Below are positions 6,220 to 13,118 of a stretch of 64,000 nucleotides of DNA, one piece after another. Positions within the stretch are counted from its first letter, which is position 1. Each line of letters begins with the position of its first letter. Origin of the DNA: an uncultured Candidatus Bathyarchaeia archaeon (lineage in GTDB: Archaea; Thermoproteota; Bathyarchaeia; Bathyarchaeales; Bathycorpusculaceae); assembly GCA_964603675.1 (NCBI GenBank), contig CAZRVS010000006.1, positions 19,587 through 83,586 on the forward strand, read 5' to 3'. Made by a program: the position numbers and the translations under genes. The notes under the pieces were generated by a model. The model was not told where the DNA came from. It saw nothing but the letters and a program-made list of their open reading frames with translations, and searched no databases.

Positions 6220-6696
6220 CTAAGACTTCTTTCTCTTCAGGAAATCTGGGCGAGTGGAGTCATATGCAACAGAAGCCTCTTGGTCGCTAACGAGCGGTTC
6301 GAGAAACTTTTGTACATTCAGCCTGTCCCAATCACCTGCGGCCTCATGAGCGTCCACGTAATTCTTAGGCATTGGATGTGTTCCAACGACCACGGGTAGA
6401 CCCACGTAATTCTCGATGTACTGGATGAAATCACGAATATAAGGACATGGCGGATAACCAGCCAAGAATCCTGACGCAAGGTGTATGACCTCGGCTCCAT
6501 ATTTTTTCATCTCTGCAGGACTCGACTCCAAGCGCTCTCCAGGACAGCCACCACACGTCACCCAGCCAACAACCTCAATTGGCTCATCCTTGGAATATCT
6601 CGCGAAAGCTCCAGACCTATCTTTCAAAGCCATGAAACATTTTCCGCCAGTGCACGTTCTGTTCCTTTCACATATCACGATTCCCAGTTTGACCAT
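6220..6696 (-). CDS. CGGC domain-containing protein
   Basis: VTCGGCPG motif with additional conserved Cys residues; length typical of CGGC-domain proteins. Confidence 0.75.
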   Translation of the reverse strand: MVKLGIVICERNRTCTGGKCFMALKDRSGAFARYSKDEPIEVVGWVTCGGCPGERLESSPAEMKKYGAEVIHLASGFLAGYPPCPYIRDFIQYIENYVGLPVVVGTHPMPKNYVDAHEAAGDWDRLNVQKFLEPLVSDQEASVAYDSTRPDFLKRKKS

Positions 6697-6825: not shown

Positions 6826-7683
6826 CTACCGGTTTAGTATATATATGCCCAATGCAACGCATGAAATCCCTATGACTTCGGTGAAATGAACCGTTTCGCC
6901 TAGAAATAGCCACCCCAGAAACACGGCGAAAACCGGAATAAGGAATTGGTAAGGAGACACTTGAGTGACATCATAGTTTTTGAGCAAATAGAAATAGATG
7001 ATGAAACCCAATGCTGAACTCACGATAGCCAGATAGACTATTATTAGGGCAAGTTGAGGCGTGATTATCAGCGAGAATGTTGTTTGATCAAAAGAACTGC
7101 CAGTTAGGAGGAAAACGCCGCACGTGAGGGATACAACTGAGCTTATAAAAAGCAAATCTTCAGTCTTAATCAGTTTCTTGAACATTATAGTGAAGATTGA
7201 ATAACTGAAAGCAGCTAACAAAACGAGGAGACCTCCGAAACCAGCTAGACCTTCTGAGAGTTCCGCAAAAATTAACACCACTCCTAGAAAACCTCCCAAA
7301 TTAGCAACAGCCTTTTTCCAAGTAAAAGATTCCTTCAAAACAAAAATGGCTAGAACTGCAACCATGATGGGTTGCGTATTGAAAAGTATAGAAGCTGTAC
7401 CACCACTAATGTACTGCATGCCGAAATGCAAAAAGCCAAATTCCAATGTAGCGAAAACGCCCAAGAAAACGGGTACAAACAGCGCTCTCAAATTACTGGG
7501 ATGGTGACCACGAGCAAACATGAGTATCAAGAGTACTGTCCCGGCGAGAAGATAACGTAGGCCTGCAAAAATCAGCGGGGGACTGGTATTGAGACCGAGT
7601 TTTATCGCAACGAACTCAGACGCCCAAATCACAGAAAGCAAAGTGAAAAGGACAGCTAACCTTAGACTTGGTGTCAGGCGCAT
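6826..7683 (-). CDS. EamA/DMT family transporter
   Basis: About 10 hydrophobic segments with a duplicated EamA-like architecture over 285 aa. Confidence 0.85.
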   Translation of the reverse strand: MRLTPSLRLAVLFTLLSVIWASEFVAIKLGLNTSPPLIFAGLRYLLAGTVLLILMFARGHHPSNLRALFVPVFLGVFATLEFGFLHFGMQYISGGTASILFNTQPIMVAVLAIFVLKESFTWKKAVANLGGFLGVVLIFAELSEGLAGFGGLLVLLAAFSYSIFTIMFKKLIKTEDLLFISSVVSLTCGVFLLTGSSFDQTTFSLIITPQLALIIVYLAIVSSALGFIIYFYLLKNYDVTQVSPYQFLIPVFAVFLGWLFLGETVHFTEVIGISCVALGIYILNR

Positions 7684-8766: not shown

Positions 8767-9264
8767 TTGACTGAGACAGAAAGTGGTAAACCGCCTAAGC
8801 AAGAAGAATTGGCAGGATTGCAGGAAAAAGCGACGCGATATTTCTGTGACCGGCCAAGCAACTTTCCTGTTGGACGACCGTTCAACTGTTGTGAAAGCGT
8901 GCTTTTGACTTTGAAAGATCGTATAGCTACGGAATCTGAGGTGATCCCCAAAGTTGGGACGGGTATCGGCGCAGGAGTATCGCTAAACGGATTGCTCTGT
9001 GGAGCTGTCTCAAGTGTAGTCATAGCAATAGGCCTGAAGTATGGCAGAACTAGCGCAGAAGTAAACCCTCAGCCAGTGTGGAATATGATTGACAAGTATG
9101 TATCAGAATTCAAGGACAAATTTGGCTACGTAAATTGCAGGGAGTTAACTGGTTTAGATATAAAAACTAAAGAAGGCTTAACGGAATACTTCACTAAAGT
9201 TCACGATTATGCCTGTGTTGCAAGACTAAAATTTGCAGTTCAGAAAGCGCTAGAAATTCTTTAG
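8767..9264 (+). CDS. C_GCAxxG_C_C family protein
   Basis: FNCCESVLL ... LCGAVSSVV ... YVNCRELTG ... YACV matches the Cys pattern of this family. TTG start. Confidence 0.7.
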   Translation: MTETESGKPPKQEELAGLQEKATRYFCDRPSNFPVGRPFNCCESVLLTLKDRIATESEVIPKVGTGIGAGVSLNGLLCGAVSSVVIAIGLKYGRTSAEVNPQPVWNMIDKYVSEFKDKFGYVNCRELTGLDIKTKEGLTEYFTKVHDYACVARLKFAVQKALEIL

Positions 9265-9355: not shown

Positions 9356-10162
9356 TCAACCCGCACCGCTTATTGCTTTTTGTGGAGGCTTTACAGCTTT
9401 GCAGGCGTGTGTAATGTAGCCTGTGTGCCCAGTCATCAGAGTCTGCGGACGCGTTTTTCCCCGTTCAATCTGCATTCCACGCATCAAGCATTCGACCGTT
9501 TCGATGCCAACAAAACTGTTTTCTTTCAAGGCCTCAACTGTTTTGACGACTTGATCTATCGTCGGGCTGAAAGAAACTATTGTACCTGAAGACTTCAGCG
9601 CTGTTTGAGCGGGTGATATGACGAGCCATGGAGTTGCCAAGTCCAATATTACCGAGTCAACTTCTCTTTCATCTATTCCCGCGGTCACATCTCTGCTTTT
9701 CAGTTCCACAAATTCAAACAGATTAGCGCGTTTCAAGTTTTTCTCCGCCGTTTTCAAGAACTCTTCCCGAATTTCGTAACTGTAGATTTTTCCGCTTGGC
9801 CTAACATAGTGGGCCAAGGCGGTTGTCAATGCTCCAGTCCCTGTTCCAGCCTCGACAACGCGGCTTCCAGGACCAATTCCGCTGAACATAACTATGAGGG
9901 CTATGTCTTTTGGGTATGTTATCTGGGTTCTTCGAGTAGATTTCATGATGTAGTCGCTTAACTGAGGCTTTAGCGCTGTGAACTCTGTGCCCAAACTGCT
10001 TGAAACAGTTGAACCATATTCCTTGCCGATTAAATCGTCAAATTTTATGAAACCCTTGTGCGTATGTAAAGTTTTTGCAGCTTCAACTTTAACCATGTAG
10101 GTTTTCCTCTGGCTTAGACAAAGAAGTACGTAGTCGCCTTCGTTTATCTTCTGATCTGTCAA
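9356..10162 (-). CDS. trmI: tRNA (adenine-N1)-methyltransferase, TrmI/Gcd14 family
   Basis: N-terminal beta domain followed by ITYPKDIALIVMFSGIGPGSRVVEAGTGTGALT (SAM motif I). Confidence 0.85.
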   Translation of the reverse strand: MTDQKINEGDYVLLCLSQRKTYMVKVEAAKTLHTHKGFIKFDDLIGKEYGSTVSSSLGTEFTALKPQLSDYIMKSTRRTQITYPKDIALIVMFSGIGPGSRVVEAGTGTGALTTALAHYVRPSGKIYSYEIREEFLKTAEKNLKRANLFEFVELKSRDVTAGIDEREVDSVILDLATPWLVISPAQTALKSSGTIVSFSPTIDQVVKTVEALKENSFVGIETVECLMRGMQIERGKTRPQTLMTGHTGYITHACKAVKPPQKAISGAG

Positions 10163-10172
10163 TTGCCTGTCA

Positions 10173-11651
10173 CTATGGTGTATATTTAAAGGGATGTTTT
10201 GAGCGATCCTTGTTTTCTATAAGCTCGTCTAGGCTTGGCCTGCCTTCAATCGCTTTTCGGACAGCGTGTCTCATCGCCTTATAATTGTTTATGTAAACAC
10301 GTTGTCTGTCAATAGCCGTTGGATGAACAAACACGTTGGCAATGATAATCAAATCTTCAGCAATCTCTCGCAAAATCGTGCCATCAGCAACGCTATCGAT
10401 AACTGCCTTGGCGACTGCAGTTTGTGCGGGGCCATAAACCATGCTTGCTTGACGCATACTCGTTATAGTGACCGTTGGGACAATTAGGGTCACGGGCTTA
10501 ACTGTTAAGTTTGGTTCCAAAATAGCCAATAATGGTTCATGCCCAGGGGTCGGAGTGGCTTTAGCCTTTACGAATGCTTCACCCACAGGGCCGTCTCTTA
10601 CTCCTATGACAAGGTCTATGTGGGCTACCTCTGCGCCTTGTCCAGCTAAAGCCTCGCCTACTCTCAACTTGAATTCGCTTATTGTTTCAGGTGCTATCTC
10701 GACAGCTGCAAAACGTTCTTCCAAGGGCTTTTCAGCCATTTCAACCTTTACAGGCTTAGGTGCTATCTTGCCTATTTTTTCCAAGTCAAGACGCAATTCC
10801 TCTCTAGCTTCGTAGGTCAATTCTCCGCCCACGCTTAACGGCTTTCTAACTGGTCCAACTTTGATTTTCATCATGTTCAACGCTTCCTTCGTGCCTACAG
10901 CGCCACTTCCAGCGATTATTCTGGCGATCTTCTGCACTTTGTATTGCAACTCACGGGCAGCCTGCAGCTCACCTTTCTTCAAGTGATTGTACATCTGAAC
11001 CCAGACATCCGGAATGACATTGGCGCTTGCCAAAATGGCGCCAGAGCATCCAGCGGCTAATGCTGCCACTACTACCTCGTCGTGTCCGCATAAAACATTA
11101 ATTTTGTCCCTCACTTTTTCCAGTACAGCTAAAATAAGACTTAATTGTCCACTACTGTCCTTTATGCCAACAATGTTCGGAATTTGAGCTAGATCCTCGA
11201 CCATTTGCCAAGGCAACGGCAAGCCTGTGCATTGAGGAATGTTATAGAGAATTATGGGCAAGTCAACCGCGTTCGCTATTGTGTGGAAGTGATCGTAGAT
11301 TCCACGGTCTGCTGGCTTCAGATAGAACGGCGTGACAATTAAGGCTGCGTCTGCACCAACATCTTTTGCGTATTTCGTCATTTCTACAGCTTGATCTGTT
11401 CCGCTGGCTCCTGTACCAGCAACCACAGGGACTTTTTCATTGGCTTCATCCACTACAATTTTGATTACTCGTTTTTTCTCTTCCGTTGTCAAATTCACAA
11501 ACTCGCCTGTCGTGCCGCATGGAACAACGCCGTGAACCCCTAATTCGATGCAGTGGCTAACCAAAAACCGCAATTTTTCTTCGTCAATGTTTTTTCCATC
11601 GTCTGTAAAGGGCGTAACCAAAGCAGGCAGTATTCCTTCAGGTTGGAACAT
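10173..11651 (-). CDS. fusion protein: DHDPS/NAL-family class I aldolase (DapA-like) plus formaldehyde-activating enzyme (Fae)
   Basis: The N-terminal ~295 aa carry GTTGEF, YNIP and IVGIKDSSG (Schiff-base Lys). The C-terminal ~165 aa carry VGEALAGQGAEVAHIDLVIG ... MVYGPAQTAVAKAV ... HPFKY, which resembles Fae. Confidence 0.85.
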   Translation of the reverse strand: MFQPEGILPALVTPFTDDGKNIDEEKLRFLVSHCIELGVHGVVPCGTTGEFVNLTTEEKKRVIKIVVDEANEKVPVVAGTGASGTDQAVEMTKYAKDVGADAALIVTPFYLKPADRGIYDHFHTIANAVDLPIILYNIPQCTGLPLPWQMVEDLAQIPNIVGIKDSSGQLSLILAVLEKVRDKINVLCGHDEVVVAALAAGCSGAILASANVIPDVWVQMYNHLKKGELQAARELQYKVQKIARIIAGSGAVGTKEALNMMKIKVGPVRKPLSVGGELTYEAREELRLDLEKIGKIAPKPVKVEMAEKPLEERFAAVEIAPETISEFKLRVGEALAGQGAEVAHIDLVIGVRDGPVGEAFVKAKATPTPGHEPLLAILEPNLTVKPVTLIVPTVTITSMRQASMVYGPAQTAVAKAVIDSVADGTILREIAEDLIIIANVFVHPTAIDRQRVYINNYKAMRHAVRKAIEGRPSLDELIENKDRSKHPFKYTP

Positions 11652-11825
11652 AGTGAATTTTCTCCTGTTAGACTAACCATAGTATTTCATATCATTTAAG
11701 CTTTGAATTTGCGTATTTGGCACGTTTAACCATCATAAGCGTGTGCGTAAAGCAGCTTGAAATTCGGTTTGCAAACGCTTAAATTTCAAGAGAACTGAAC
11801 AAAATACAGCGCGGGAGGAAACTTT

Positions 11826-13118
11826 TTGAAGAACCTCAGGGAAAAACTGAGAATAAAGGAAGATAACCTTAAGCAAGTTAACGATTTCCTTCTGAGAAAA
11901 GACAATCCCCTCGTAAACAGTTTATTAGAAATCGTTGACAAGTATGGCGGCGTCAACGAGATTAACCGCAAGGCAAAGGAAGCCCGCGAACTTGAAAACT
12001 TAATGGAGAGGCTTAGAAAGAAAAAATCTCCCTTTCTGAAGGATTTGGAGTGGTTAATTAAACAGCGTGACAAGAAAGCTTTCATTAGCATAATTGATTA
12101 CCGCAAAAAAGTCTTGGGAAAAAAAGCCGATTCCATAAAGTTTAACGAGCCATTTGCAGTCACGCTAGAAATCAGCGCATTCAACTTTTTCCCGTGGTTA
12201 TTAGAGGAAGCAAAACATGCGATTAAACAGCAAGACCTCATGCCTAGCCGATACATTCGTGTCCGCTCCATCAAAGAACAAGTTGAAGATAATGACATTC
12301 TCGCCTTCGCAGCCGCAATGCAGATCATAGGTGCCTCTTACGTTCAAACGTTAGACACGAAGGGAACGATGCCCGGACCAGACGGCAAACCAATCAACGT
12401 TCATCTGGGTGGTCCGGAGACCATGACAGGCTATTTCGGCGGAATTGGAATGCCAAATGATTACACTTTAAAGTGGGTGGAAGAGTTCCTTCACTACTAC
12501 ACGGAATACGGAGTTCAGCAAGTGCTAAACACTAATTCGGGCACTGTAATGTTAGGCTATCTGCTCCGCAAACTTGAAATAGACGTAGAATTCAAAATTT
12601 CAGTATTCCTAGGCAACGATAACCCCTACTCAGTCCTTTGGACACTAATAGGCGCAAAACTTTTCAGTTCAGAGGACGGCGTAACCCCCCTCATCGGTTT
12701 TAACCTTTCAAACGCAGTCAACAACGAAACAATTGAATTGACAGCCTACACTCGGAAAGCCTTCAACTTCGAAAACGTTGTCCGCATTGAACATCACATA
12801 ACAGAGGCTTACAAGAGCATTATAAGACAACCCTACGACCGCCTAGAGGAGCTCGTTGAAATTGCAGGACGCGTCAAGAACATAAGTGCCAAACATGAAG
12901 GCGGAGCGCCTGAAATTGAAAAAGTCAGGGAGCACCCATCCGATATATTGGACTATTTCATCCCAAAGAAAGACATCATTGCCAAGGAGTTGATGCCGAA
13001 ACTTCTGGTCAACTATCTTGACAAGCACGACGCAGTGAACAGAACAGCAAAAGCATTGACTGAGCACGGACTAACCTTTATCGCAGCCCAGAACTTGCAC
13101 AAGAAAACATCCGCTTAG
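11826..13118 (+). CDS. conserved-looking hypothetical protein (N-terminal coiled coil plus a ~330-aa globular domain)
   Basis: 430-aa ORF with good coding composition. It is divergent from the DapA-Fae gene. No family recognised. Confidence 0.6.
   Translation: MKNLREKLRIKEDNLKQVNDFLLRKDNPLVNSLLEIVDKYGGVNEINRKAKEARELENLMERLRKKKSPFLKDLEWLIKQRDKKAFISIIDYRKKVLGKKADSIKFNEPFAVTLEISAFNFFPWLLEEAKHAIKQQDLMPSRYIRVRSIKEQVEDNDILAFAAAMQIIGASYVQTLDTKGTMPGPDGKPINVHLGGPETMTGYFGGIGMPNDYTLKWVEEFLHYYTEYGVQQVLNTNSGTVMLGYLLRKLEIDVEFKISVFLGNDNPYSVLWTLIGAKLFSSEDGVTPLIGFNLSNAVNNETIELTAYTRKAFNFENVVRIEHHITEAYKSIIRQPYDRLEELVEIAGRVKNISAKHEGGAPEIEKVREHPSDILDYFIPKKDIIAKELMPKLLVNYLDKHDAVNRTAKALTEHGLTFIAAQNLHKKTSA

Follow-up and report, generated by a model that had tools for sequence, protein, structure and literature searches.

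A widespread fusion of a pyruvate aldolase-type domain with a formaldehyde-activating enzyme domain in Bathyarchaeia, Asgard archaea and bacteria

The 64,000-nucleotide stretch of an uncultured Candidatus Bathyarchaeia genome analyzed here (the window; contig CAZRVS010000006.1) encodes a 492 amino acid protein, P0001, that joins a DHDPS/NAL-family class I aldolase domain to a formaldehyde-activating enzyme (Fae) domain. We tentatively predict, at somewhat less than even confidence, that it is a bifunctional enzyme other than DapA, which would cleave a 4-hydroxy-2-oxo acid by a retro-aldol reaction to pyruvate and formaldehyde and load the formaldehyde onto tetrahydromethanopterin (H4MPT) through its Fae half. 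By analogy, the best-supported logic of the fusion is that of Fae-Hps, in which a formaldehyde-liberating lyase is joined to its trap. The aldolase and Fae catalytic residues are conserved, the arginine characteristic of DapA is lost, and the genome (G000) lacks a detectable DapB. Beside the fusion lies a gene for a second protein, P0305, that appears to belong to no known family.

Gene and domain architecture

The fusion gene is a single open reading frame (ORF) that runs from ATG to stop on the minus strand and encodes 492 amino acids plus the stop. It has the following parts:

10173 to 11651, minus strand: whole aldolase-Fae fusion gene P0001 (ORF and translation, two Pfam domains, full-length in 80 genomes)
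10779 to 11642, minus strand: DHDPS/NAL class I Schiff-base aldolase domain, residues 4-291 (PF00701, DapA structure alignment, site census)
10662 to 10778, minus strand: inter-domain linker, residues 292-330 (gap between Pfam envelopes, low model confidence, weak conservation in the alignment)
10188 to 10661, minus strand: Fae domain, residues 331-488 (PF08714, TIGR03126, full-length alignment to PDB 1Y5Y)

An earlier note on this DNA had placed the ORF at exactly these coordinates, without its strand, and had described an apparently intact pyruvate aldolase-type domain joined to a complete Fae-like domain. Hidden Markov model searches bear out both domains over nearly the full length of their Pfam profiles. 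The aldolase half matches PF00701 (E = 1.7e-81, profile positions 2-287 of 289) and the Fae half matches PF08714 (E = 1.2e-60, 204.6 bits with a cut-off of 27, profile positions 1-158 of 159). The NCBIfam cut-offs are also exceeded, by TIGR00674 (dapA; 253 bits, cut-off 206.15) and by TIGR03126 (Fae; 215 bits, cut-off 118), and the C-terminal domain thus fits Fae models.

All of the motifs cited from the letters alone are present in the translation. The aldolase domain contains GTTGEF (residues 46-51), YNIP (136-139), and IVGIKDSSG (160-168), which includes Lys164; the Fae domain contains AEVAHIDLVIG (340-350), YGPAQTAVAKAV (406-417), and HPFKY (486-490). The codon of Lys164 is at 11160-11162, that of Cys141 at 11229-11231, and that of His344 at 10620-10622.

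The two Pfam envelopes are separated by 39 residues that are poorly conserved in the alignment. In the AlphaFold2 (AF2) model, built with 26 homologues, the two domains are well folded (predicted local distance difference test, pLDDT, mostly 80-97) and residues 301-327 fall below 50, as predicted for a disordered tether; the C-terminal tail is also of low confidence. The linker of about 25 residues proposed before is therefore present as a flexible segment, but it is somewhat longer, at about 30 residues.

Distribution and origin of the fusion

We collected carrier loci as the best 80 matches to the fusion, with one genome per GTDB species. All 80 are full-length fusions: 36 are from Bathyarchaeia, 27 from Asgard archaea, three from Thermoplasmata or Thermoproteota, and 14 from bacteria (Chloroflexota/Anaerolineae, Thermodesulfobacteriota, and Myxococcales). 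A word-indexed protein search found more than 120 clusters at 85-90% identity, 492-505 amino acids long, every one with both Pfam domains. Most are from Bathyarchaeia metagenome-assembled genomes (MAGs), and most are named “4-hydroxy-tetrahydrodipicolinate synthase”. An exhaustive search of 50%-identity representatives added about 16 full-length fused clusters at 35-55% identity, the named members of which come from Lokiarchaeota/Promethearchaeota, Korarchaeota/Thermoproteota, and Anaerolineae. The fusion, for which a check on distribution had been proposed, is thus far from rare and is spread over several archaeal and bacterial phyla.

We give next to no probability to the ORF being a product of mis-assembly or of a frameshift that united two separate genes. 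We found no evidence in its support; the single-domain pieces among the representatives, which might have been taken for stand-alone genes, resemble contig-end fragments. The same architecture recurs in hundreds of independent assemblies across several phyla. Two independent sequencing runs (X3 and X7) yielded contigs over the linker region, with no indel listed within the ORF, and a further run that may be the source sample (X1) yields a 29-kb contig identical to the stretch. The mis-assembly considered in the earlier note is ruled out on these grounds.

Within Bathyarchaeia the fusion occurs in about 44 of 151 sampled species (about 29%), and in only two of 15 in the family to which the window belongs. 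It is an accessory gene with a patchy distribution.

A FastTree phylogeny groups the aldolase domains of the fused proteins in what is essentially a single clade (support 0.78). Three sequences listed as unfused fall inside this clade, and two of them are apparent fragments. Because of this near-monophyly, we infer that the fusion probably arose once and was then transferred between archaea and bacteria.

Aldolase domain

Aligned to DapA, P0001 keeps the entire catalytic set (Thr47/Thr48, Tyr110, Tyr136, and Lys164). The Schiff-base Lys164 is conserved in 93 of 93 genome-derived fused proteins.

NCBI and IMG annotate proteins of this type as DapA (4-hydroxy-tetrahydrodipicolinate synthase, EC 4.3.3.7), and a genuine DapA that merely bears a fused Fae would agree with much of the similarity. 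Among PDB sequences, it is DapA enzymes (such as 2YXG, 3PUD, and 1DHP) that match P0001 best and with which it shares the fold, the Thr-Thr/Tyr/Tyr/Lys set, and an identity of roughly 40-45% (estimated by eye from the alignments), and the score for the TIGR00674 equivalog lies above its cut-off. However, P0001 differs at a residue that defines DapA. Arg138 of DapA (E. coli numbering) binds the carboxylate of aspartate semialdehyde. In HMMER alignments with solved DapA structures, the DapA motif YNVP(S/G)RTG corresponds to YNIPQCTG in P0001, which places Cys141 at the Arg138 site. Across the 93 fused proteins this position is Cys in 63, Val in 14, Thr in seven, Ala in five, Leu in four, and Arg in none, compared with Arg in 52 of 124 nearest unfused DHDPS representatives.

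The genome as a whole also speaks against DapA. It is 2.52 Mb in size and 99.9% complete, and it encodes four DHDPS paralogues, none of which has the Arg. DapB (TIGR00036) had no match in this genome, and the LysW, LysX, and LysM cluster is present, so lysine would be made by a LysW-type route. The patchy distribution of the fusion is a further point against this annotation. P0001 also differs from DapA in bearing a C-terminal Fae domain. We consider a true DapA very improbable.

The TIGR00674 model does not discriminate DapA here, since proteins that fail the defining DapA Arg pass its cut-off: the three unfused paralogues, all without Arg, score 190-260 bits, and two of these scores are above the cut-off. 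For the same reason, the database name DapA is probably wrong for the fusion. The NCBIfam models for NAL, 2-keto-3-deoxygluconate (KDG) aldolase, and HpaI-like proteins match P0001 below their cut-offs.

The replacement of the aspartate-semialdehyde Arg by a small neutral residue suggests that the aldehyde partner is small and uncharged. Other members of the family, including KDG aldolase, the 2-keto-3-deoxy-xylonate aldolases YagE and YjhH, HOGA1 (4-hydroxy-2-oxoglutarate aldolase), and N-acetylneuraminate lyase, likewise use Schiff-base retro-aldol chemistry to yield pyruvate and an aldehyde, and to our knowledge none of them requires the DapA Arg. P0001 differs from this group in that none of its members is fused to Fae, and it meets no specific subfamily model. 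We know of no member of the DHDPS/NAL family for which formaldehyde is the aldehyde in an established physiological reaction.

The three further DHDPS paralogues are located at G000:C2:231108, G000:C3:161586, and G000:C2:146150 (L002, L003, and L004). One is flanked by genes for a class V aminotransferase and an EamA transporter. Another is next to a gene for an ornithine cyclodeaminase/mu-crystallin protein, a setting like that of hydroxyproline or proline catabolism genes, and the third adjoins a gene for a thiamine pyrophosphate enzyme akin to the large subunit of acetolactate synthase.

Fae domain and H4MPT-related genes

The Fae domain of P0001 aligns over its full length with the Fae of M. 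extorquens (PDB 1Y5Y, E = 4.5e-36). His344 and Asp346 correspond to His22 and Asp24 of that enzyme, which we take to be active-site residues from the 1Y5Y and 1Y60 structures, and the HPF tail (residues 486-488) is kept. The catalytic residues of both domains are therefore intact. Fae is known as a homopentamer with active sites at the subunit interfaces. Given the oligomers known for the two enzyme types, the fusion might be expected to form a D5 decamer in which aldolase dimers bridge two Fae pentamers.

The genome encodes a second source of Fae, a canonical Fae-Hps at G000:C1:539803 (585.8 bits, NF009833 cut-off 274), so the fusion is an additional Fae of this organism. Fae-Hps of methanogens (NF009833) is the closest known system. 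In both proteins a canonical Fae is joined to a carbon-carbon lyase able to release or consume formaldehyde, and the presumed logic, in which formaldehyde is captured on H4MPT beside the lyase, is the same. They differ in domain order, with Fae N-terminal in Fae-Hps and C-terminal in P0001, and in lyase superfamily: Hps has the OMP-decarboxylase fold and acts on a sugar phosphate, whereas P0001 has a DHDPS-family pyruvate aldolase with a predicted 2-oxo acid substrate. NF009833 matches P0001 in its Fae half only (profile positions 2-161 of 392, 176 bits, below the cut-off of 274).

Mch, Mtd, and two Ftr are also encoded in the genome, so methylene-H4MPT could be processed in this organism. Mch occurs in 121 of the 151 sampled Bathyarchaeia and does not discriminate carriers of the fusion. 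It is present in most of the 44 Bathyarchaeia carriers and in four of five other archaeal carriers (two Lokiarchaeota-type genomes, one Thorarchaeon, and one Thermoproteota). RFAP synthase is found in 70 of the 151 Bathyarchaeia.

We considered whether the fusion substitutes for RFAP synthase and rejected this as a general rule. RFAP synthase is present in 19 of 44 carriers and 51 of 107 non-carriers, and it co-occurs with the fusion in two Bathyarchaeia families (f18 and f20). In the order to which the window belongs, the two are mutually exclusive in our sample, with RFAP synthase in none of 10 carriers and 13 of 24 non-carriers.

Partner protein P0305

The neighboring gene is transcribed divergently from the fusion:

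11652 to 11825, no strand: divergent intergenic region of 174 bp between the fusion and P0305, presumed to be a shared promoter region (gene coordinates)
11826 to 13118, plus strand: partner gene P0305, 430 amino acids (AF2 model, synteny, co-occurrence with the fusion)

A homologue of P0305 adjoins the fusion in 51 of the 80 loci and is the only conserved neighbor of a general kind. In 28 Bathyarchaeia loci it is divergent in most, as in the window. In 22 Asgard loci the two genes share a strand, with the homologue immediately upstream of the fusion at a distance of about 35 bp, and one Anaerolineae locus also has the homologue beside the fusion. P0305 is 62-77% identical between Bathyarchaeia and Asgard archaea and is more conserved than the fusion. 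Homologues occur in 19 of the 151 sampled Bathyarchaeia genomes, and all 19 of these also carry the fusion, in several cases on a different contig. A 316 amino acid neighbor in bacterial, Thermoplasmata, and some Bathyarchaeia loci is a distant homologue (BLASTP E = 6e-6).

The AF2 model of P0305 (pLDDT 86.6) has an N-terminal helical domain (residues 1-105) and a TIM barrel (106-423). A Gly-rich loop (180-210) is strongly conserved yet disordered in the model. Together with conserved His and Asp residues, this loop suggests a site that binds a metal or a phosphate. Searches of Pfam, NCBIfam, and PDB sequences, including a profile search, gave no match. There are more than 8000 database relatives, and those with names are “hypothetical protein” except for two IMG entries called “DNA-binding phage protein”. 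Foldseek aligns the model with class II FBP aldolases at template modeling (TM) scores of only 0.30-0.48. It reaches a TM score of 0.76 with a structure Atlas cluster in which 17% of members carry the U32 (peptidase) family, and VIA-align matches it to many unrelated TIM barrels (Z 11-12.7). Judged from the model, the structural likeness is probably that of a generic TIM barrel only. Feature-search matches of P0305 to replication-protein clusters had low recognition and were treated as noise.

Predicted function

In the mechanism that we propose, the aldolase half would split a 4-hydroxy-2-oxo acid into pyruvate and formaldehyde by a retro-aldol reaction through a Schiff base on Lys164. The simplest candidate substrate is 4-hydroxy-2-oxobutanoate, which transamination of a gamma-hydroxy amino acid such as homoserine could supply. 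With the flexible linker of about 30 residues as a tether, the formaldehyde would react with H4MPT at neighboring Fae active sites to give methylene-H4MPT, which Mtd, Mch, and Ftr would then handle. As the earlier note suggested, the formaldehyde may be channelled between the two reactions. The enzyme may act jointly with the divergently encoded P0305. An accessory catabolic or detoxifying function would fit, because the fusion is patchily distributed.

Several observations weigh against this assignment. It is the fused Fae alone that would indicate formaldehyde as the aldehyde. The genes for H4MPT biosynthesis and the methyl branch, which the earlier note had singled out, are present only in part: beside Mch, Mtd, the two Ftr, and Fae-Hps, neither RFAP synthase (TIGR00144, best match 20 bits) nor a true Mer was detected in the genome, so the source of H4MPT in this organism is unexplained. 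Mch is absent from a complete Thermoplasmata chromosome that carries the fusion, and neither Mch nor RFAP synthase was found in any of the five bacterial carrier genomes examined. H4MPT cannot be the universal co-substrate of the family, because the A-type paralogue of these carriers (described below) still keeps the Fae catalytic residues; in carriers without Mch, the Fae domain either uses another pterin or plays a non-catalytic role.

Degenerate paralogues and heterogeneous surroundings add to these points. We distinguish an A-type fusion, which has a canonical Fae domain as in P0001 and is the only type in genome G000, from a B-type fusion, which keeps the aldolase Lys and has lost the Fae tail, with the Fae His replaced by Gln, Arg, Lys, Gly, Ser, or Thr. 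Many lineages have a B-type paralogue in tandem; such B-A pairs occur in bacteria, Thermoplasmata, Thorarchaeota, and some Bathyarchaeia. In one distant tandem pair (L095:6544-9449) the Schiff-base Lys is lost in both copies (Ala and Leu). The degenerate Fae of the B type and the two distant members without the Lys hint at structural or regulatory roles. Beyond the partner and the B-type paralogue, gene neighborhoods are heterogeneous and lineage-specific.

The same observations bear on a different reading, in which the Fae-like domain is not an H4MPT enzyme at all. It could be a pentamerizing scaffold, a regulatory module, or an enzyme for another nucleophile or pterin such as tetrahydrofolate, and the aldehyde need not then be formaldehyde. 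This would account for the carriers that lack Mch, for the bacterial ones that also lack RFAP synthase, for the missing RFAP synthase in G000, and for B-type proteins that are without the Fae His and tail yet are kept in tandem with the A type. However, His344, Asp346, the VFVHP motif, and the HPF tail are all present in the A-type proteins, those of bacteria included, which argues for retained Fae chemistry, and Mch is nearly always present in archaeal carriers. We regard this reading as rather unlikely, though well short of negligible.

The distant pair without the Schiff-base Lys lies downstream of a RibD_C-family gene and upstream of an IF-2B and class II aldolase pair. Another distant tandem fusion pair (L097:6715-9398) is near MoaA/MoaC and a radical-SAM/SPASM gene.

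Because both the Fae and the class I aldolase reactions are reversible, the enzyme could also run in the anabolic direction, in which Fae would free formaldehyde from methylene-H4MPT and the aldolase would add it to pyruvate or another 2-oxo acid. Variants of this idea are a PanB-like hydroxymethyl transfer or the formation of 4-hydroxy-2-oxobutanoate from pyruvate and formaldehyde, leading to homoserine. A partial methyl-branch H4MPT pathway could supply the methylene-H4MPT, and the PanB of this assembly is interrupted by a TAA. Against this, homoserine dehydrogenase is present in the genome, and a relative (G130) has an intact PanB together with the fusion. A core biosynthetic step would hardly be expected in less than a third of the sampled Bathyarchaeia species and in so few members of the family to which the window belongs, and the neighbors that recur are of a catabolic kind (peptidases, PALP enzymes, and an aminotransferase accompanied by an importer). 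The anabolic direction is chemically possible and, with homoserine dehydrogenase and PanB present and the gene accessory, disfavored; we consider it unlikely.

Functional analogues of this reverse direction are PanB and, in the synthetic homoserine cycle, the engineered 4-hydroxy-2-oxobutanoate aldolase step, since they add a one-carbon (C1) unit at the formaldehyde oxidation level, pterin-bound or free, to a 2-oxo acid. PanB, which is also found in this lineage, is metal-dependent and comes from another enzyme family, and the homoserine cycle is an engineered one; in neither case do we suggest homology. We rejected the idea that the fusion stands in for PanB or for the formation of homoserine from aspartate, since homoserine dehydrogenase and PanB are encoded in the genome and PanB also in G130. 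The PanB match in G000 (C4:274811-275516) is split into two pieces, with the TAA in the longer one, and may be a pseudogene or a sequencing error.

Genomic context

Some of the lineage-specific neighborhoods provide weak hints about the substrate of the predicted retro-aldol cleavage. In one locus (L101) a tandem fusion pair is translationally coupled to an aminotransferase, which is followed by a Liv-type ABC importer. PALP enzymes are encoded directly downstream of the fusion in a Bathyarchaeon (L036) and in a member of the Anaerolineales (L088), M20 or M28 peptidases are near the fusion in four loci, and in another locus (L065) the gene pair is followed by a Pab87-type hydrolase and SHMT. 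Since such neighbors appear in independent lineages, they hint at 2-oxo acids derived from amino acids.

A Thermodesulfobacteriota MAG has a tandem fusion pair flanked by two MttB-family methyltransferase genes and an MR_MLE enolase-superfamily gene (L082:4496-11578). Two Chloroflexota loci (L078 and L085) have a transaldolase/FSA gene upstream of the short partner. UDP-glucose dehydrogenase and peroxiredoxin are other lineage-specific neighbors.

In the window, a TrmI/GCD14-type tRNA m1A methyltransferase gene (9356-10162, minus strand) follows the fusion on the same strand after 10 bp. This adjacency occurs in about 22 Bathyarchaeia loci and in none outside the class, and it probably reflects synteny within the lineage rather than a link in function. 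Within a few kb of the fusion are also genes for a CGGC-domain protein (6220-6696, minus strand), an EamA transporter (6826-7683, minus strand), and a C_GCAxxG_C_C redox protein (8767-9264, plus strand), none of which was seen to be linked with the fusion at other loci.

Implications

The fusion is a variant on the Fae-lyase theme with a partner of no known family. The earlier note knew of no described DapA-Fae fusion; we found no description of a DHDPS-Fae protein in the literature searched, and the genomic papers on Bathyarchaeia name only “fae”. Few subsurface microbes are as abundant as Bathyarchaeia and Asgard archaea, whose carbon metabolism has been inferred almost wholly from annotation. 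Automatic naming of the fusion as DapA would wrongly imply a diaminopimelate pathway of lysine synthesis and hide a second Fae-linked enzyme.

If the predicted function is correct, nature would have in P0001 an aldolase that links pyruvate with formaldehyde and with a C1-carrying pterin, a reaction that metabolic engineers have constructed from promiscuous enzymes. The archaeal Wood-Ljungdahl/H4MPT network would then gain a new point at which C1 units enter or leave.

It is possible, though on balance doubtful, that the fusion, its TIM-barrel partner, and in many lineages the paralogue with degenerate Fae make up an undescribed, widespread module that interconverts a 2-oxo acid and pterin-bound C1 via enzyme-bound formaldehyde. 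Such a module would do in nature what the synthetic aldolase routes from pyruvate and formaldehyde do by design, and it may serve the catabolism of gamma-hydroxy amino or sugar acids, or C1 assimilation, in abundant subsurface archaea. The strict co-occurrence with the fusion makes the function of the large, Pfam-less P0305 TIM-barrel family testable.

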